Below, piece by piece: positions 23,711-36,368 of a stretch of DNA of 42,279 bases. The translations under genes and the position numbers were made by a program. The notes beneath the pieces were generated by a model. The model saw only the letters and a program-made list of their open reading frames with translations. It was not told the DNA's origin and did no database searches. The DNA is from Candidatus Bathyarchaeia archaeon. Its GTDB lineage: Archaea; Thermoproteota; Bathyarchaeia; Bathyarchaeales; Bathycorpusculaceae. The stretch covers positions 1 to 42,279 of the forward strand of contig JBEKWR010000016.1 of assembly GCA_049512935.1 (NCBI GenBank). The letters are read 5' to 3'. Position 1 is the stretch's first letter, and each line of letters begins with the position of its first letter.

Positions 23711-24949
23711 ATGAAAAAGATGAACCTAAAGCAAGTCTTAACCGTAATTTCCGTTTTCGGCCCCGCAGTCCTCGTCTCAGTAGAACTGTTTGATCCCGCC
23801 AGCATCGTCGCGGCAACGGCGGCGGGCGCAGCAGTTGGCTTTGCAGTATTATGGGCAGCCTTCTACTCAGGCGTCTTGCTGATCGGGATACAAGAGATTA
23901 GCGCTAGGTTGGGAGTTGTCACTGGAAAAACCTTAGCGGAAAACATACATCAAAGGTTTGGACCACGCTATTCACTTCCACTCTTCACGCTTTCGCTGTT
24001 TCTGAACCTCGCCACGCTAACCGCCGAAATAATGGGTCTAAGCCTCGCAGTATCGTTCCTGTTCAAAATAGCCTACCCTTTAGCAATAGCCATATCGATT
24101 CTGCTAAACATTATTCTGGTTTACTTAACTTCATACGACAAATTAGAAAAAATCTTGATAATCTTAGTCACTGCAATCTTCTTATCCTACTTATATTTTC
24201 TCTCCTCGCTCCACGCAAACCTTGGCACGATAGTTTACAATTCGCTGGTTCCTTCACTGAAGGCTAACTCTTTCTACTACGCCGAGGCGATAGTAGGGGC
24301 TTCTATTACACCCACCTACGTCATCCTTCACAGCGGACTAGTTTACGAAAAAGGATGGGCTCATCACCACGAGAAAGGAGTTGAAGACCTAATCAAGGAA
24401 GGCAAATCCGTGAGAAAAGAAAGAGTCGATTCCTTTGTAAGTATCCTAATGGGCACAATTCTCACTATTGTCATAATGGCCAGTGCTGCATTACTGATCG
24501 GGGGCAAATCGGTGGCTAGTTTCGCGGATATAGCAGCCCCTTTCAGCATTAAATTTGGATTAGCGGGAGTGGAAGTCTTCGCAGTCGCCTTTGCCTTCGC
24601 TGGAATATTAGCTGTGGTTACTGTAGGCTTGGGCACAGTTTACTCTGCCTTCGGATTTTTGGGCCTTGAGAGCCAGATTAAGGAAAGAAGGTTCAGGTTC
24701 GTATTCGTCTTGGCGCTCGTAATCTCTGCAATTTTCGCGCTCATACCAAACCAAATTGAAGTAATGGTCTTCACCCAATACTTAAACGGGCTCCTGCTAC
24801 CGTTTATCCTCGTACCTCTCGTAATTATCACCCGAAACAAGGATTTAATGGGCAAATACAAACTCGGAAAAGCTACCTTAGCTTTAGCATTGGCAACGAT
24901 CGTAATAACAACGATTCTCTTCCTCGCAAGCATAGCTTCAATGTTGTAG
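23711..24949 (+). CDS. NRAMP/SLC11-family divalent metal transporter with divergent binding motifs
   Basis: FDPASI, QEISARLGVVTGKTLAENI, AEIMG, GASITPTYVILHS, about 11 TM segments. Confidence 0.85.
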   Translation: MKKMNLKQVLTVISVFGPAVLVSVELFDPASIVAATAAGAAVGFAVLWAAFYSGVLLIGIQEISARLGVVTGKTLAENIHQRFGPRYSLPLFTLSLFLNLATLTAEIMGLSLAVSFLFKIAYPLAIAISILLNIILVYLTSYDKLEKILIILVTAIFLSYLYFLSSLHANLGTIVYNSLVPSLKANSFYYAEAIVGASITPTYVILHSGLVYEKGWAHHHEKGVEDLIKEGKSVRKERVDSFVSILMGTILTIVIMASAALLIGGKSVASFADIAAPFSIKFGLAGVEVFAVAFAFAGILAVVTVGLGTVYSAFGFLGLESQIKERRFRFVFVLALVISAIFALIPNQIEVMVFTQYLNGLLLPFILVPLVIITRNKDLMGKYKLGKATLALALATIVITTILFLASIASML

Positions 24950-25022
24950 AGTTCGACGGATTAGCACTGAAAGAATACATGTTAAGCAAATCCTTGTTTT
25001 TCCTTGGAGAATGCTAAAAGTT

Positions 25023-25101
25023 TGGCGGGCCCGCTGGGATTTGAACCCAGGACCTCCGGCTCCGCAGGCCGGTGTCATAATCCGTACTAGACGACGAGCC
25101 C
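25023..25101 (-). tRNA. tRNA-Arg (anticodon GCG), CCA encoded, no intron
   Basis: GGGCTCG/CGGGCCC acceptor stem, CCGGC-CTGCGGA-GCCGG anticodon arm, CTGGG-TTCAAAT-CCCAG T arm, G-CCA 3' end. Confidence 0.97.
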
Positions 25102-25191
25102 AAGGTTTTTGCGCCCAGAAAACTGGGGCAGAATAGTAAACACTTTGCTTAAACTTAAAAATAGTGGTGAAGCTGAAACGGGTTACGTTGT

Positions 25192-26793
25192 TTATTTGGG
25201 GTAAGTTATTTTGAACTGGGTTCCTTCGCCGACCTTGCTTTCAAAGCTTACAGTTGCGCCCTGCGCTTCCACCAATCGTTTGACAACGGCTAACCCGAAG
25301 CCTTGCCCTTTGGATTTGGTTGTCATCAACGGCTGGAAAAGCTTGGGCTTAAACTCGTCGGGGATGCCAACGCCCGTGTCCCCAACCGTGATGGCTATGC
25401 CGTCGCCTTCAGGTGAAGCTTTGATGGTCAGGGTTCCGCCGCTAGGCATAGCCTGAACAGCGTTAGTAACCAGGTTGACAAGAACCCGTTTGAGAAAAGT
25501 AGAATCTGCCTTTACCTGCAGGTGCCCATCGATTTCCTCAACAACTCTGACGTTGCCTGGGACATTGACTGTTGAGAGCATTTCGGGAATGGCAACGCTG
25601 AGGTCAACTTCCGCCATTTCAGGCTTAAGGACCCTCGCGTAATCTTGCAGGTCAGTTATAATCTTGTTGATGTAATCAACCTGCTCCTGGATGATTCGTA
25701 AACTCTCTCGAACGTCAATCTTAAACTGGGAATCAACTGAATCATCCACTTCTTGATTCATCAAGAACAGTTCCCCAGCGATAGCCTGCAGGGGGTTGCG
25801 TATGTCATGCCCAATCATGCCTGCAGTTTGCCCAATAGCGGCTAAGCGTTCAGCGTTCTGCAACTGCTTTGTCCGCTCCTCCACGATGCGCTCAAGATTT
25901 TTCGCGTAATCCTCAAGTTTTTGTTCTATCTGCCTGCGTTCAGTTACGTCCTGTTCTATACCAACTATCCTCGCGGGTTTGCCGTCTTCCCCGATTTCCC
26001 TGACGATTCGCTCGGAATGGATAGTCCTTACGGAGCCACCGCGCCTGACAATACGGTAATCAAAACTAGCCTTAGAAAGCAGCCTTGCGTTAAACAGCAG
26101 TTGCTCCATCTCTTGGTTAATTTTTTCTCGGTCTTCAGGATAAATATGGGAAACATACTCAGCCGTGTTGGGACCGTACTTTTGCGGTTCTAAGCCAAAA
26201 ATTCGGAACAGCTCGTCAGACCAAATCGCCTTGTCATCTTTAGTATAATACTCCCAGTTGCCCACATGAGCGATTCTCTGCGCCATTTTTAGTCTGTCTT
26301 CGCTTTCCTGAAGCGCCTCTTGAGTTTTAACTCGTTCAGTCACGTCATCGAAAATGGTTACTGCTGCGTTAACTTTGCCTCCATTACCGTAAAGCGGCTT
26401 CGCGCTTACGTTGACAATAAAACGTTTCCCATCGGGGCGCTCGATAATTTCAGGCGAGTTGAGAACGGTCTCTTCATTATATAATGCCCGGTAAGTACAA
26501 AGTTGTTCAGTCGGACAAACTTTACCGTCCAACGTGTAAAACTTCAAAGCCTCAAAATGCTCTACTAATTTTAAGCCGCAAGGGTTTCCGCCGTACAGTT
26601 CAAAAGCCCTTTTGTTCGCAAAAGTCAAGATTCCACCAAACTTTTCCACGACAATCACGGCTGAGGGAATATTATCCAAAATATCTCGAAACCGTTCTGA
26701 CTCCAAAGGTAAAGCGCAAGACGTAGAGATAGAGCTTAAAAGTTCGTCTTCGTCAACACGTTGTTGCCCATTCACTTTTTTTGCTTTCATCAT
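25192..26793 (-). CDS. Cytoplasmic PAS-PAS sensor histidine kinase
   Basis: Two PAS/PAC domains; H-box GHDIRNPL, N-box NLVTNAVQA, DTGVG, GQGFGL; no TM segment. Confidence 0.93.
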   Translation of the reverse strand: MMKAKKVNGQQRVDEDELLSSISTSCALPLESERFRDILDNIPSAVIVVEKFGGILTFANKRAFELYGGNPCGLKLVEHFEALKFYTLDGKVCPTEQLCTYRALYNEETVLNSPEIIERPDGKRFIVNVSAKPLYGNGGKVNAAVTIFDDVTERVKTQEALQESEDRLKMAQRIAHVGNWEYYTKDDKAIWSDELFRIFGLEPQKYGPNTAEYVSHIYPEDREKINQEMEQLLFNARLLSKASFDYRIVRRGGSVRTIHSERIVREIGEDGKPARIVGIEQDVTERRQIEQKLEDYAKNLERIVEERTKQLQNAERLAAIGQTAGMIGHDIRNPLQAIAGELFLMNQEVDDSVDSQFKIDVRESLRIIQEQVDYINKIITDLQDYARVLKPEMAEVDLSVAIPEMLSTVNVPGNVRVVEEIDGHLQVKADSTFLKRVLVNLVTNAVQAMPSGGTLTIKASPEGDGIAITVGDTGVGIPDEFKPKLFQPLMTTKSKGQGFGLAVVKRLVEAQGATVSFESKVGEGTQFKITYPK

Positions 26794-27142
26794 TCGTAGG
26801 TCCTGTTCATTCTCACAGGAAGCCTAGACGACTGCTACCAAATATTATGGCTACATAACAGTTGAGTCTCTTGGCTTTCTATTTATGGCTGACTAATGGT
26901 AATCAAAAAGATACATAAAAAGTCACCGAAAAAGTCAGTTCAAAAGAAACATGCAAAAGCAAGATTGTTCGCTTTCTTGGCCATGATAAAGTCTGCAGAT
27001 TCTTGCATCAGAATTTGATACGCAAAAAATATCAAGCGGACGGGGGGTTGCGGTTGCAGTCCTCTTTTTTTAATCCATCTTGATGTTTAGATTTTTGCGT
27101 AATCCTCTTGATTTGTTGCGTAAGATGTTTGAAGGGATTATG

Positions 27143-32437: not shown

Positions 32438-32911
32438 ATGCCTAACGAACCCCATTCTGAAAACAACTTTGATGAATTAATCAGCGACTTCTCACGCTTC
32501 TACATACTCACCATACTGTATGAGGGACCAGCGTATGGATACAGCATCATCAGCCGATTCAAGAAAAGAGTAAAAAAAGATGTAAGTCCCAGCCTGGTTT
32601 ACCCGTTTCTTGGGCAGCTGGAAGAAAAAGGGTTGGTCACGCACACGATAAAACCCGTGGGCGAAAAAGAAAGAAAAATCTTCGAGTTAACCCAAGCAGG
32701 CAGAGAATTATGCACGGAGCTTTTCAAACGCTTCGCCGACCTAGTGTCAATCGCCATTGAGCCAAGCCTCTATGTCTGCGCCCACTGCGGATGCAAAGTC
32801 TACGAGGGCGGCTACAGAGAAGCCATAGACGGCAGGGAAACAGCGTTCTGCTGCATCCACTGCGCCATGTCATACAAGGAAGCAAAAAGGCTGGCTAAAC
32901 AAAAAAGCTGA
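32438..32911 (+). CDS. PadR-family regulator with C-terminal Cys-rich (TRASH-like) metal-binding domain
   Basis: YGYSII, SPSLVYPFLGQLEEKGLV, RKIFELTQAG; CAHCGC...FCCIHC. Start placed at ATG 32438. Confidence 0.88.
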   Translation: MPNEPHSENNFDELISDFSRFYILTILYEGPAYGYSIISRFKKRVKKDVSPSLVYPFLGQLEEKGLVTHTIKPVGEKERKIFELTQAGRELCTELFKRFADLVSIAIEPSLYVCAHCGCKVYEGGYREAIDGRETAFCCIHCAMSYKEAKRLAKQKS

Positions 32912-32980
32912 TTCCGACAGCCACCAAGATTGCGATTGATTTATAGATAATTATACTCCACAAAAAATAGTTCGGAGCTG

Positions 32981-32998
32981 CTAGTCTTTTATGGCTTC
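32981..32998. repeat. Left att-like direct repeat CTAGTCTTTTATGGCTTC
   Basis: Identical to 36014-36031; match extends to 25 bp with 2 mismatches (TACAAAG vs AATAAAG). Confidence 0.9.
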
Positions 32999-33298
32999 TA
33001 CAAAGTTAAAGTGACAAAATCCTTCGTTAGTCTCTTTTTTCTATTAAATACTTAATAGATAACCAATGGAGCCATCTCCCGCATACCCATTTTTTTATTT
33101 AAAAGGAAAAGATGAAAAAATTAACATTTGGCAACAAATTTGTAGAGGCTAGTCAGTGTTATTTGCCTTCACGATGTCTAGATATTTGTTGTAGTCTTCA
33201 GTAAGCAACATATCCTAAACTATTCCAACATATTATAAACTTATATGGCAGTTAATAGTAAACAGATAAAACGCTTAGCTTAATTGAGGAGATTAAAT

Positions 33299-33535
33299 TT
33301 GGAAGAATGCCCAAAATGTGAAAAATGGACCTTTTCTTATAATCCTAAAGCTGAAATGAAGGTTTGCTTTAGTTGTGGCTATAACGTTAAGTTTCCTTTC
33401 GACCAATTTATTAATGAAAAAAACGTTATAAATTTTCTTAGTTATCCAAAGCATAAAAGAATTGAAGAAAACAATCAGATGGTTTGCAGAACAATCATAA
33501 TGCAACCTTTAAAAAAATTTTCTATGTGCCCTTAA
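33299..33535 (+). CDS. Small Zn-ribbon protein
   Basis: GAGGAG SD before TTG 33299; CPKC-x15-CFSC; 14-bp convergent overlap with the deaminase gene. Confidence 0.7.
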   Translation: MEECPKCEKWTFSYNPKAEMKVCFSCGYNVKFPFDQFINEKNVINFLSYPKHKRIEENNQMVCRTIIMQPLKKFSMCP

Positions 33536-34805
33536 CCTCATCTTCTTTTTTCCTCTGCCATGGTCCGAAGACTCTGAAATAGGCTTTGGCTTTGATTCCT
33601 TCAAACTTGTTAACTTTAACATCTGCTTCCTTGAGAAGCCTGATCGAATCTTCATCAGGATATGGCTCAACATAGACAACATTCTTAATTTTGCTAAATA
33701 CTATTTTTTGAGAACATGTAAAGCATGGAAAGGTAGTGGTGTAGAGTGTGCATCCTTCTATGTTTCTGCTGCCTGCCGTCAAAATAGCTTTTTCTTCAGC
33801 ATGTAAAGCAGTGCAACGATCCATAATTTTATCTTTAATAAAATATTTGCCTAAATCAAAATTGCAAGTGTGTCCATTGGGTAATTTGTTCTTGCAGAAG
33901 AAAGGGAATTTTACATCCTTAATTTTTTGTTCACATTTTGGGCAAACAGTTGCGTTACTCTCAAGTTCGGCCATACGTTTGTTTTTGCATATATCTCTGT
34001 AGCAACCAGCATACTTAATGAAGCAAGGTTTCATTGGATACGGATTCTCGTTATAACCGACCGAAAGTATGGCATCTTTTTTCTCGTCTACGATGACGGC
34101 ACCAACCCTTCTTTTGATACATTGAGACATTAATGACGCTGAATATGCCATACCCATGTAAGATTCCACCGCTTCAGGTGGTCTAAGTTTGCCTTCAAAT
34201 AATTCTATGTATGGATCTATTTTCGATTTAAGCTTCAAAACAGCTGTGGGTCTTGACGGAAATGTTTCATCATTATCAAGCATCATGTCAGCTTCATCAA
34301 CGCAAAGCTGAACTTGCTGTCCGTGCTCAGTCCATTCTTCTAGTTTATCTCTTTTGTCATCCTCAAAAAATTGGTCTTCGCCCTGACCCAATTTTTTATA
34401 ATCATCTTTTACCCGTTCCCATCTAATGCCAGTTGAACAGTCAACAGCTATTAGGAAAAAATTTCTGTATGAACTTCGGAGATATTCAACCTCGCCCAAA
34501 TTTCTAATACTTGAAAATACCAATCGTTTGTTTTCTTTTGCTCGTTCATTGGCTTCATTGACCGCTAAGGATGCTAAATAACTATTTTCTTTGCTTTCTC
34601 TCAATTCATTGCCCATATTCTGGAGATCACTTTTTTTTGCCTCTTTTGAATCCTTTCCATTTTTCTGAGCCCAAGCTTCTTTAACATATTTAGAAAGCGA
34701 GAATTGCTCAAATCCTAGTTTTACGAGCGCCTCGCCAAGAGTGGAACAACCACTTCCGAATGATCCAGTTAACCCCAGAGCGAGCTTTTCTTTTACTTCC
34801 GTCAT
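33522..34805 (-). CDS. AvcD-like P-loop nucleotide kinase / deoxycytidylate (dCTP) deaminase fusion
   Basis: N-terminal GLTGSFGSGCST P-loop, RD...HGQQV...AD; C-terminal S-x-C-x-KRRVGAVI, GYNENP, HAEEKAI, TTTFPCFTC, YVEPYP, FEGIKAKAYFRVF. Confidence 0.85.
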   Translation of the reverse strand: MTEVKEKLALGLTGSFGSGCSTLGEALVKLGFEQFSLSKYVKEAWAQKNGKDSKEAKKSDLQNMGNELRESKENSYLASLAVNEANERAKENKRLVFSSIRNLGEVEYLRSSYRNFFLIAVDCSTGIRWERVKDDYKKLGQGEDQFFEDDKRDKLEEWTEHGQQVQLCVDEADMMLDNDETFPSRPTAVLKLKSKIDPYIELFEGKLRPPEAVESYMGMAYSASLMSQCIKRRVGAVIVDEKKDAILSVGYNENPYPMKPCFIKYAGCYRDICKNKRMAELESNATVCPKCEQKIKDVKFPFFCKNKLPNGHTCNFDLGKYFIKDKIMDRCTALHAEEKAILTAGSRNIEGCTLYTTTFPCFTCSQKIVFSKIKNVVYVEPYPDEDSIRLLKEADVKVNKFEGIKAKAYFRVFGPWQRKKEDEVKGT

Positions 34806-34820
34806 ACTTGATCGCCGTAT

Positions 34821-35588
34821 TTAGTCTTTAATTTTCTTTTTATCCGGAACATGCTTCACAACGGCACGCTCAACGGTGTCTACAGGCAGATACAACATCG
34901 CACCACTCCTGCGGAACTTTCCGCTCGCATCAAGAACCACGCATCGAGGTCCAGACTTTTTTTTCAGCATTTCAGCATCAAGAAAACTCTTAACTATAGA
35001 AAGGGCAGATTGCTCTTCGAAAGCCTCTTTGCACGCATAACTAAGTGCTATTCGAGTAACCTCTACACTATCCACCCAATCAACATCTCTCAACAATATA
35101 GGAACATCAACAGGTTCCATTTCGCCAGATTTTTCAGCCATTAACATCACGATGCTGCCTAGACTCAGAAGACCATCAGATTGCTTAGCTTCAGAAAAAT
35201 CGTTTATTCCTTCCAAAGAGGTTAGTTTGTATTTGTCAATTATACGTTTCCAATGTTCGAAAACCGATGGTGATGTTCTCCAAAACTCGTCCATCAGAAA
35301 CAATAATGTTGATTCTTTGACATCTGCCCACTGACCATTTTTGACTTCAATAAGGTCAATTGGCAATTTTGAAAGCTCACTTCTAACGAAATCCACATAT
35401 TCACTCAGTTTATCGTAATGCTCGAGAAGGATTTCATTATCCTGACAAAGTTTTTGAATGCAAGAGCGTACGAAATCTGATTTATTGATTTGAATCATTT
35501 GAGCCACCGTATCAAATTGTTGAGATAATGTCTTCTCAATTCTGGCCGAAATGGTTGTTAATCTGACGAGGTCCGCCATTGTAATCAC
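34821..35588 (-). CDS. 255-aa protein: N-terminal ribbon-helix-helix-like domain plus unrecognised C-terminal domain
   Basis: TTISARIEKTLSQQFDTVAQMIQINKSDFVRSCIQKL fits the CopG/MetJ-Arc pattern; 15 bp upstream of the deaminase. Start is GTG 35588 or ATG 35579. Confidence 0.75.
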   Translation of the reverse strand: MITMADLVRLTTISARIEKTLSQQFDTVAQMIQINKSDFVRSCIQKLCQDNEILLEHYDKLSEYVDFVRSELSKLPIDLIEVKNGQWADVKESTLLFLMDEFWRTSPSVFEHWKRIIDKYKLTSLEGINDFSEAKQSDGLLSLGSIVMLMAEKSGEMEPVDVPILLRDVDWVDSVEVTRIALSYACKEAFEEQSALSIVKSFLDAEMLKKKSGPRCVVLDASGKFRRSGAMLYLPVDTVERAVVKHVPDKKKIKD

Positions 35589-35618
35589 TTGTTTACTGCA
35601 AACTACTTATCTAAATCT

Positions 35619-35635
35619 GTAATACCTTGTATTAC
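35619..35635. promoter_or_regulatory. Palindromic operator GTAATAC-CTT-GTATTAC
   Basis: Perfect 7-bp inverted repeat between the minus-strand TTTAAA box (35639-35644) and the RHH gene start. Confidence 0.6.
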
Positions 35636-35714
35636 GCATTTAAACTTTGTGTACGCCTGATTCTCTTTCGTTCATAAGTAAAGAATAACTTCAATTTCGG
35701 GAGGACAAGCAAAG

Positions 35715-35815
35715 TTGGAAACGGTCAATATACGCTTAGAACGCTAAAGCGTGAAGGATTGGGCCTTTCTGAAGCCGAGATTGTAAGCCGAGGATTGATC
35801 CGTTTGCCAAACTGA
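35715..35815 (+). pseudogene. Possible frameshifted small RHH gene remnant
   Basis: GGGAGG SD, TTG start, METVNIRL then stop; another frame continues TLKREGLGLSEAEIVSRGLIRL. Confidence 0.35.
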
Positions 35816-35997
35816 TGCCAAGACCTTAGAAACACACTAATCTACATTAACCTAGAAAAAGCACTCTTTCAAAATGCTGATGAAGAATACCATGTAAAAG
35901 TTGCCGAAAACTTACAAGAAGCATGCAAACTACTAGAAGTAGGCTTTGAATACGTTACTGATCTAACGGCGCTAAGCTGTTTAGGAAAAGAAAGTAG
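35816..35997 (+). pseudogene. Tyrosine recombinase/integrase C-terminal remnant, frameshifted
   Basis: RNTLIYINLEKALFQNADEEYHVKVAENLQEACKLLEVGFEYVTD, frameshift, NGAKLFRKRK*. NTLIY resembles the catalytic-Tyr segment; no start codon; lies next to the att repeat. Confidence 0.75.
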
Positions 35998-36013
35998 TCC
36001 TATATGCTCTAAA

Positions 36014-36031
36014 CTAGTCTTTTATGGCTTC
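36014..36031. repeat. Right att-like direct repeat, equal to the last six codons of the UPF0147 gene
   Basis: CTAGTCTTTTATGGCTTC; the minus strand reads E-A-I-K-D-stop. Confidence 0.9.
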
Positions 36032-36292
36032 AATAAAGCTCATTACGTTCCAGAGCTTAACCCGCGTGTAGGGCGGCATGTTTGGGTCTTGAAGAATCTC
36101 GTCCAGAAGCGACACTGCGTTTGAAGCGCGCACGGCAACTGTGTACTCGCCGCTTTGTAGGGAGTTCATGGCGTCTTTGGCTGAGCGTCTTATGTTTCTA
36201 GGCGTTGTGCTGTCCTCGGAAACTTCTGCAAGCACCGCTAACGCTTGTTTAATTTTTGCATCGTATTCTTCAGCCTTTTTTTTGCGAACCAT
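36014..36292 (-). CDS. UPF0147 family protein
   Basis: EDSTTPRNIRRSA, RASNAVSLLDEILQDPNMPPYTRVKLWN; start at MVRKKK (36292), not 36610. Confidence 0.92.
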   Translation of the reverse strand: MVRKKKAEEYDAKIKQALAVLAEVSEDSTTPRNIRRSAKDAMNSLQSGEYTVAVRASNAVSLLDEILQDPNMPPYTRVKLWNVMSFIEAIKD

Positions 36293-36368
36293 AATGGACC
36301 CTGCCCGCGCATTTTTGGAAGTGACCAAGTTATATAAGGATTGATACGTATTTACTTTGGGGTTGCTC

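Follow-up and report, generated by a model that had tools for sequence, protein, structure and literature searches.

A divergent AvcD-family deaminase on an integrated remnant in a bathyarchaeon, with a zinc-ribbon protein as its candidate partner

Introduction

Antiviral defence by deoxycytidine triphosphate (dCTP) deaminases is usually described in one of two forms, a system of one gene or a deaminase restrained by a small RNA (sRNA), and PADLOC and DefenseFinder treat it as one gene. In the passages of 10.1101/2023.02.09.527960 that concern its control, the Vibrio enzyme AvcD pre-exists, the labile AvcI RNA keeps it inactive, and a shut-off of transcription sets it free. The single-gene enzyme of Escherichia coli requires both of its domains for defence according to sections of Tal et al. 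(10.1101/2021.04.26.441389), where substitutions in either the kinase motif (G29A, C30A) or the deaminase (C370A, C401A) abolish protection. Here we describe a relative of these enzymes encoded in a 42,279-nucleotide (nt) stretch of DNA, hereafter the window, from Candidatus Bathyarchaeia archaeon (GenBank assembly GCA_049512935.1, contig JBEKWR010000016.1). Its gene lies between that of an upstream protein with a ribbon-helix-helix (RHH)-like head and, at its 3' end, a small zinc-ribbon open reading frame (ORF). We lean, cautiously, towards reading the locus as a nucleotide-depleting enzyme of the AvcD family on the remnant of an integrated element, forming a two-protein module with the zinc-ribbon protein, to which an RHH repressor would have been added; this reading draws on sequence comparison and structural modelling.

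The locus resembles AvcID of Vibrio cholerae in its two-domain P-loop/deoxycytidylate deaminase, in the expected depletion of deoxycytidine nucleotides and in the encoding of a dedicated regulator beside the enzyme. The AvcID regulator, as given in the same passages of 10.1101/2023.02.09.527960, is an sRNA encoded upstream, whereas the window has a protein gene upstream and the zinc ribbon on the 3' side. With the E. coli-type single-gene enzymes it shares full-length homology, the HAE and PCxxC motifs and a sporadic, mobile distribution, but it is only 26-29% identical to them, falls below the cut-off of their NCBIfam model NF041025 and has no lysine in the loop. It is also some 100-150 residues shorter, at 427 amino acids (aa) against 499-532 for three annotated plasmid genes and 576 for the enzyme in the sections cited of 10.1101/2021.04.26.441389. 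In the part of PMC11291487 that concerns Asgard genomes, dCTPdeaminase is among the defence systems more frequent there than in other prokaryotes. The archaeal occurrence of a dCTP deaminase is thus already known, and the new point is the zinc-ribbon partner, on which nothing was found in the open-access literature.

A divergent deaminase of the AvcD family

The deaminase gene occupies positions 33522-34805 on the minus strand and is an intact ORF of 427 aa. It and the two ORFs beside it were all found, intact, where a preliminary description of the window, made from its letters, had placed them. Pfam recognizes AAA_18 at residues 11-136 and dCMP_cyt_deam_1 at 213-379, corresponding to a kinase-like P-loop domain (about residues 8-205) that lacks the lysine and a Zn-dependent deaminase domain (about 212-405) with an internal four-cysteine insert. 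Homology extends over the full length of the protein: the PADLOC model dCTPase (PDLC02373) matches residues 5-421 with E 4.3e-94, NF041025, an equivalog model of anti-phage dCTP deaminases, is matched at positions 2-436 of 437 with 218.8 bits (218.3 bits on the genome), and a tblastn search of plasmids retrieves annotated anti-phage dCTP deaminase genes from Photobacterium, Klebsiella and E. coli, with alignments that span 97-100% of the query. At least 1062 homologues were found. The AvcD-like architecture proposed in the preliminary description is borne out by these matches, and by sequence we assign the 427-aa protein to the AvcD/anti-phage dCTP deaminase family as a divergent member of a separate deep clade.

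The motifs named earlier are likewise present and conserved in an alignment of 21 homologues. In the P-loop, G11, G14, G17, S18 and G19 are invariant and C20 is found in 20 of the 21; G162, Q163 and V165 of the HGQQV segment are invariant, as are H335-A336-E337, P360-C361...C364 and Y382-P383-D384. The YxEPYPD segment is invariant or nearly so, and so is the four-cysteine insert at 288-314, which lies between the second strand and the HAE helix. H335, E337, P360, C361 and C364 are also common to the three annotated bacterial enzymes. The window P-loop reads G-S-F-G-S-G-C-S-T against G-x-x-G-[SC]-G-x-K-[ST] in those gammaproteobacterial enzymes (n = 3). The preliminary description had put a cysteine at the usual lysine position, which is right in the classical GxxxxGK[ST] register; in the alignment with the three enzymes, their lysine stands opposite S21 and their V, M or I opposite C20, and by sequence the window clade is without any loop lysine. 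Equating the loop cysteine with the C30 mutated by Tal et al. was considered and dropped; the loop cysteine of a homologue from enterotoxigenic E. coli (ETEC) aligns with S18, not C20.

An AlphaFold 2 (AF2) model built from the 21 homologues has a predicted local distance difference test (pLDDT) value of 90.3. Its C-terminal half resembles deoxycytidine monophosphate (dCMP) deaminases, with 2hvw as a match at E 2e-11 and a template-modelling (TM) score of 0.81 by target, and also the dCMP/dCTP deaminase 7fh4 of PBCV-1; its N-terminal half resembles adenylate-kinase-related proteins (3lw7, TM score 0.79 by target). No full-length relative was found in the Protein Data Bank (PDB). The C-terminal fold and catalytic motifs are shared with the dCMP deaminases of Streptococcus mutans (2hvw), human (2w4l), T4 (1vq2) and cyanophage S-TIM5 (4p9c) and with the PBCV-1 bi-DCD (7fh4), but these are single-domain proteins of 126-193 residues, to which the window protein adds the kinase-like domain and the four-cysteine insert. 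By homology the 427-aa enzyme would deaminate dCTP and/or dCMP and act against viruses.

The three annotated plasmid loci, which represent the canonical family, differ from the window in having a small ORF upstream that is not a zinc ribbon and no zinc ribbon downstream. The upstream ORFs of two of them, at 1648-1818 in L094 (Photobacterium) and 1691-1876 in L095 (E. coli), end in ..AAQKIRW and ..ASKKITW, respectively. A peptide may be encoded as well in this slot, which is the position of AvcI in Vibrio, or the two ORFs may be spurious predictions.

A zinc-ribbon protein encoded at the deaminase 3' end

The zinc-ribbon ORF lies on the plus strand, convergent with the deaminase gene and overlapping its 3' end by 14 nt. 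It is open from a TTG at 33284 (33284-33535, 83 aa), but translation probably begins at the TTG at 33299, which is preceded at 6 nt by GAGGAG, giving a protein of 78 aa (33299-33535) with a CPKC...CFSC motif and a conserved tail. Two genomes of the same genus that have a deaminase homologue and lack the 252-aa upstream protein carry a small CPxC...CxxC ORF at the deaminase 3' end; the copy in one of them, G003, is 40% identical to the window protein (E 2e-14).

A gene-neighbourhood survey, which the preliminary description had proposed for archaeal genomes, was carried out on one genome per species, scanned with the deaminase motifs, and 80 loci were kept. The archaeal loci come from Bathyarchaeia, Thermoplasmatales, Methanobacteriaceae, Methanohalarchaeum and Micrarchaeota, and the bacterial loci from ten named phyla, among them Chloroflexota, Bacillota, Planctomycetota, Acidobacteriota and Actinomycetota. 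A zinc-ribbon profile was grown from the first matches and then applied to all 80. Of the 80 loci, 39 have a zinc-ribbon ORF adjoining the deaminase 3' end, or 39 of the 75 with at least 150 nt of downstream sequence, as five of the 41 loci without one have less than that. Seven of the 12 archaeal loci have it. The two genes share a strand in 37 of the 39 cases; 31 of these zinc-ribbon ORFs follow the deaminase within 10 nt, and in 19 cases the two genes overlap by 4 nt. The RHH protein, in comparison, was found in none of 40 relatives of the window genome and in none of 400 other genomes of the phylum. Given these counts, the conserved partner of the deaminase across phyla is, by sequence, the zinc-ribbon protein and not the RHH protein; the preliminary description had rightly placed the zinc ribbon beside the deaminase, but its rank as a mere neighbour does not hold.

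The phylogenetic distribution was followed on a tree from an IQ-TREE quick search (LG+G4), with support from the Shimodaira-Hasegawa-like approximate likelihood-ratio test (SH-aLRT) only. Its 77 rows comprise the window, L009 and L006, 71 of the surveyed 80 loci and, as outgroup, the three annotated plasmid enzymes; excluded from it were nine loci whose longest ORF is under 330 aa (L013, L031, L034, L037, L062, L070, L074, L079 and L081) and the duplicates L004 and L005. Every zinc-ribbon locus of the tree falls within one clade of 73 rows (SH-aLRT 100, stem 0.92), and the trait stands on several of the deepest branches of this clade. It requires 8 changes on the tree, against a mean of 25.5 when shuffled, and none of 500 shuffles was as low. 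In a subclade of 24 rows rich in zinc ribbons, just two rows lack the partner, and in both the contig runs out within 95 nt of the gene. Subclades lacking it are those of Sumerlaeota/Micrarchaeota, of Planctomycetota and of Acidobacteriota/Actinomycetota. The window groups with L009 and L010 (support 99) in a Bathyarchaeota group nested among bacterial sequences.

Three side observations concern variants of this arrangement. In the Planctomycetota loci L028, L030, L036, L045, L046, L055, L065 and L074 the zinc-ribbon partner is 186-206 aa long, with about 130 extra residues; one of four scanned forms matches DUF2283 in the extra domain (E 0.0068, under the cut-off), a domain that we take to belong to antitoxin-like contexts. 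Nine loci without the zinc ribbon (L016, L017, L018, L020, L021, L022, L023, L029 and L070, from Acidobacteriota, Actinomycetota, Chloroflexota and Myxococcota) have another small ORF downstream of the deaminase on the opposite strand, of 47-72 aa and with the motif ..V(I/L)G..G(S/T)SG(Y/N) (profile E 8e-14 to 2e-24). These loci lie within or near the Acidobacteriota/Actinomycetota subclade, and the ORF could be an alternative partner, or it could mirror a conserved element of the sense strand. The deaminase frame is split or shortened in L013, L019, L031, L034, L062, L070, L074 and L079, in five of which (L013, L031, L062, L074 and L079) the zinc-ribbon ORF is intact; this could reflect decay of the enzyme with the partner kept, or errors of metagenome assembly.

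The zinc-ribbon protein itself carries few clues to its activity. Its nearest structural look-alikes are ribbons of the TFIIB and TFS type, all below the bar at which the tool names a family, and in the ESM Atlas the best match (0.91) falls in unnamed clusters with no family. No DNA-binding domain was detected in it. The ORF matches positions 259-325 of 339 in the PADLOC candidate PDC-S64 (E 2.5e-5; 2.1e-4 on the genome), which hints that a zinc-ribbon domain of this kind is fused to another protein in that candidate system; a search for longer proteins (362-2000 aa) with the zinc-ribbon profile found no fusions, which by the tool's own account is weak evidence. Among the neighbouring ORFs of 200 aa or more, 128 of 142 were compared with the PADLOC models, covering 36 of the 39 zinc-ribbon loci, and strong matches were to HmaC, DpdF, AbiEi/AbiEii, PsyrT, DrmMI and type II/IIG restriction-modification models; the scan had no control set and we claim no enrichment.

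A predicted complex and the sense of its control

The deaminase and zinc-ribbon protein were modelled as a complex from our own alignments, of 21 and 30 rows. The interaction prediction score from aligned errors (ipSAE) was 0.67, 0.59 and 0.66 in three runs (median 0.66), and the best of three controls scored 0.00. In a benchmark, 58 of 80 solved complexes and 2 of 110 mismatched pairs attained this mark, which is a rough guide only, own alignments having been used here. Contacts agree between the runs to at least 53%, and the partner has a pLDDT of at least 66. On the partner, the modelled surfaces are a hairpin at 8-19 and the tail at 34-50, the parts that are conserved among the Bathyarchaeota copies; on the deaminase they are 383-403 (a helix and the strand following it), 241-244, 208-212, the linker helix 191-198 and 124-127. 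The predicted contact thus lies at the edge of the deaminase domain, on helix 385-393 and strand 397-400, and on the interdomain linker. The model supports binding of the zinc-ribbon protein to the deaminase.

What such binding would do is a separate matter. In the reading that we favour, the zinc-ribbon protein would be a regulatory subunit that holds the enzyme until infection, a protein counterpart of the AvcI sRNA; that it is a brake of this kind is a proposition to which we give slightly less than even credence. MqsR/MqsA-type pairs offer a parallel, in which the toxin gene comes first and is followed, in translational coupling, by that of a small zinc-binding antitoxin. The two systems are unrelated in sequence, the zinc ribbon here is without a detected DNA-binding domain, and its inhibitory role is by analogy.

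Alternatively, the zinc ribbon could be an infection sensor or activator that is bound constitutively or upon a viral cue, such as a change in the transcription machinery, and switches the deaminase on. The modelled interface, which avoids the catalytic residues, fits this reading, as does the likeness to TFIIB/TFS-type ribbons, though under the naming bar, and the existence of whole subclades without a zinc ribbon is easier to understand for a lost activator than for a lost antidote. The 4-nt overlap in 19 of the 39 loci points the other way, translational coupling behind an enzyme gene being typical of stoichiometric pairs such as toxin-antitoxin pairs. So do the 24-row subclade, whose only partnerless rows are the two truncated contigs, and the sub-threshold DUF2283 match in one of the four long planctomycete forms. 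On balance we regard a sensor as rather unlikely.

The space available upstream also bears on how the enzyme is controlled. Only 76-134 nt separate the P-loop codons from the end of the nearest preceding ORF of 90 aa or longer in many zinc-ribbon loci, and because of this there would often be no room upstream for an RNA of AvcI size (170-300 nt) in this clade. At the window locus itself, an Rfam scan of 32800-36200 at E up to 1 found no family beyond a lone chance Xist_exon1 row, the coverage of AvcI in Rfam being uncertain, and a scan for promoters and terminators of bacterial type found no more sites than in shuffled sequence.

The upstream gene and its putative promoter

The RHH-like gene lies on the minus strand, 15 nt from the start of the deaminase gene, and is the first of a two-gene operon. 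Its ORF is open from a GTG (34821-35588, 255 aa); the ATG at 35579 is backed by homologues, its equivalent being the start in six of them, which gives a protein of 252 aa (34821-35579). The protein begins with a strand-helix-helix, followed by a C-terminal domain of about 200 aa without a recognized fold. Within its first 50 residues is a conserved motif, TISVR...NKSDF.R.C..KL, in which R13 of the strand is invariant in 20 sequences. The profiles matched are PHROG CopG-like (E 7e-4) and NCBIfam aCcr1 (E 4e-3), and among 20 family members DUF6290 is matched in five and RHH_1 in two. The RHH assignment of the preliminary description is made plausible by these concordant matches and by the conserved strand-helix-helix, with the qualification that every match is weak and under its curated cut-off. 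The remaining 200 residues fold confidently in the model and match no known fold: the best Foldseek match has E 0.42, the best VIA-align match has Z 3.2 with a root-mean-square deviation (rmsd) of 5.9 over 67 residues, and the best ESM Atlas match (0.83) belongs to no family.

A putative archaeal promoter with an operator for the RHH head precedes this gene on the minus strand at 35612-35647, where AAAG-TTTAAAT (TATA box at 35644-35638) is followed by the palindrome GTAATAC-aag-GTATTAC (35634-35618). The same order, of an RHH gene, a 25-nt gap and a deaminase gene, occurs in the metagenome contig L009, whose RHH protein and deaminase are 61% and 67% identical to those of the window. There, TTTAAAT is followed by GTATTAC-a-t-GTAATAC-tgt-GTAATAT, with the half-sites of the window kept directly after the TATA box. 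A third pair of homologues, P0123 and P0006, comes from contigs that are both 3011 nt long. Judged by its sequence family the RHH head would bind DNA, and the protein, a third gene added in this lineage, would most likely repress its operon through the palindrome in its own promoter.

An upstream gene so placed could instead encode a type II antitoxin, whose C-terminal domain neutralizes the deaminase while the RHH head autoregulates, leaving the zinc ribbon as an inherited accessory. The 15-nt spacing and promoter palindrome, the gene order repeated in L009 and the third pair would suit an antitoxin; DUF6290 is matched in five of 20 members, and the source of one homologue gives its name as 'antitoxin component of RelBE/YafQ-DinJ'. 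Among the deaminase relatives with full context, however, the closest (G003/L010, 58% identity) has no RHH gene and has kept the zinc ribbon. The family is moreover very rare: a profile search of 1.84 billion proteins yielded 31 cluster representatives and a word search of 5.8 billion proteins seven relatives, and it was not found in scans of viral or genome contigs. The C-terminal domain, finally, has no recognizable fold. We consider this reading unlikely; the RHH protein is a rare add-on. The earlier proposal of a control layout different from that of Vibrio stands as far as the upstream protein gene, with its plausible RHH head and promoter palindrome, is concerned, but the conserved companion is the zinc ribbon on the 3' side.

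The remnant of an integrative element

The three ORFs lie in a low-GC insertion of 3.0 kb at the 3' end of a UPF0147 gene, bounded on each side by a 25-nt repeat. GC content is 0.33-0.40 at 33-36 kb against 0.42-0.54 in all other 1-kb bins of the window. The left direct repeat (32981-33005, att-like, no strand assigned) is a copy of the last codons and stop of UPF0147, and the right one (36014-36038, likewise) is the true 3' end of that gene (36014-36340, minus strand; PF03685, E 2.9e-30); the two are identical at 23 of 25 positions. Four genomes of the same genus (G003, G004, G012 and G013) have an empty site, with the flanks 45-81 nt apart against 3110 nt here. The island is unchanged in contigs from other peat and wetland samples, which bridge both junctions, and the contigs of four DNA runs contained no joint skipping the island and no differences within it. 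Among the sequencing runs listed as containing the locus, none was of RNA.

Two gene relics accompany the module, both on the plus strand. One, at 35858-36013 and abutting the right repeat, is the relic of an integrase C-terminal tail; its match is to the C-terminal tail of a fragmentary tyrosine-recombinase-like ORF that lies on a different contig of this genome (E 7e-5, 42% over 33 aa). The other, at 35678-35815, is the relic of a neighbouring element gene, of which 11 of 14 residues are those of the N-terminus of a 121-aa ORF flanking the RHH gene in L009 (E 3e-5 in a single comparison). No profile in the Pfam and PHROGs scans recognizes either relic. The description of an att-flanked element is well borne out by the low GC, the repeats and the empty sites; its decayed integrase has the match within its own genome in its favour and lacks Pfam or PHROGs support. 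Judged by the sequence, "att-flanked element with decayed integrase" is a fair description. Copies of the integrase-relic DNA (35830-35996) at 70-89% identity occur in G003, G005, G010, G011, G014, G015, G025, G026, G030 and G032, and a family of integrative elements seems to be common in this archaeal group.

The deaminase gene is patchily distributed. The genome of the window (2.30 Mb, 49 contigs, 93% complete) has a separate 168-aa single-domain dCMP-deaminase-like ORF on another contig. Homologues of the 427-aa protein were found in three of 24 other genomes of the genus (58, 45 and 31% identity), and a search of 16 further genomes of the same order gave none. The patchy distribution, the insertion absent from relatives and the separate 168-aa deaminase together indicate by sequence that the gene is accessory and horizontally acquired, on an integrated remnant, as the preliminary description had supposed. 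A housekeeping role in pyrimidine salvage, as dCMP deaminase or as nucleotide kinase, is suggested by a deaminase domain of the dCMP-deaminase type but is extremely improbable. The ComEB model TIGR02571 scores 48.1 bits against a cut-off of 219.45, the homologue was not found in 21 of the 24 genus and all 16 order genomes, the low-GC insertion is absent from relatives, a second deaminase ORF is present in the genome, and the window enzyme nests among bacterial sequences in the tree.

The module might, on the other hand, have served the mobile element itself, as an addiction cassette (post-segregational killing) or a tool for manipulating nucleotide pools, and now be stranded. Its place is within an integrated element that retains an integrase relic, the L009 module stands beside a ParB-like ORF and other small element genes, PHROGs contains two-domain relatives (phrog_9198, E 2e-33; phrog_8118, E 1e-25), and a full-length relative occurs in a Burkholderia phage. 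Yet the three ORFs are intact where the rest of the element has decayed, the identical sequence recurs in other peat and wetland contigs, and the viral contig collection yielded 1 locus only. Defence systems commonly ride such elements, so the two readings overlap in part; service to the element is distinctly unlikely.

Outside the module, two further 1-kb bins of lower GC (0.437 and 0.431) lie within 24001-27000 of the window, around a tRNA-Arg gene (25023-25101). On contig 21 of the same genome (L097), a tyrosine-recombinase fragment of 140 aa has as neighbours an AbrB/SpoVT-like small ORF and a PIN-like ORF (129-895 and 1474-1896, assigned by eye), perhaps a further decayed element with a toxin-antitoxin pair.

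Proposed mechanism

In the mechanism that we propose, the enzyme would have arrived on an integrative element since reduced to a 3-kb remnant, and its deamination of dCTP and/or dCMP would starve a replicating virus of deoxycytidine nucleotides. Throughout the deep archaeal and bacterial clade it would work as a two-protein module with the small zinc-ribbon protein, and in this lineage the RHH protein would have joined as operon repressor. The retained archaeal defence module of the preliminary description is upheld in its family and intact motifs; its archaeal occurrence is not new, and the defence itself is assigned by homology.

A number of observations weigh against this proposal. The deaminase scores below the 400-bit cut-off of NF041025, and its P-loop lysine is missing. 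The catalytic residues H335, E337, C361 and C364 are absent from the listed interface, so that a simple plug of the active site is not predicted, and the model is silent on inhibition versus activation; the make-up of the interface residues shows no clear contrast between 35 rows with the partner and 33 without it. No zinc ribbon is present in 36 of the 75 loci with downstream sequence, and the protein is dispensable or replaced in whole subclades. It is encoded on the opposite strand in L010 (the locus of G003), L013 and the window only, and because the gene is inverted, co-translation of enzyme and zinc ribbon appears from the sequence to be lost in the window locus. On the side of the RHH protein, all matches are weak (E 1e-4 to 4e-3), residues 1-47 have a pLDDT below 50 as a monomer, and the operator is conserved between two loci only. 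Lastly, no defence genes were met around the locus in the flank scanned, the two genes of the right flank being UPF0147 and an Auto_anti-p27 zinc-ribbon protein.

A broader form of the proposal is more tentative, and we hold it to be doubtful. Under it, the cross-domain branch of AvcD would be a two-protein system in which a TFIIB/TFS-like zinc ribbon replaces AvcI as the labile or infection-sensing switch, perhaps reporting on the gene-expression machinery, and the window would be a three-gene archaeal elaboration with an RHH autoregulator.

Implications

If the proposal is right, about half of the sampled loci of the deep clade would have a coupled protein partner, the control logic would differ between branches of the family, and annotation pipelines would miss a component. 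The replacement of an RNA antitoxin by a protein would then be visible inside one enzyme family. The presence or absence of a partner of 50-100 aa beside the enzyme would offer a handle on how nucleotide-depleting defences are silenced and released. Pairs from cultured or easily expressed bacteria, such as Desulforamulus putei DSM 12395 (L032), make the question testable. We know of no virus-host system for Bathyarchaeia-like peat organisms, and the locus adds a candidate antiviral module for these archaea.

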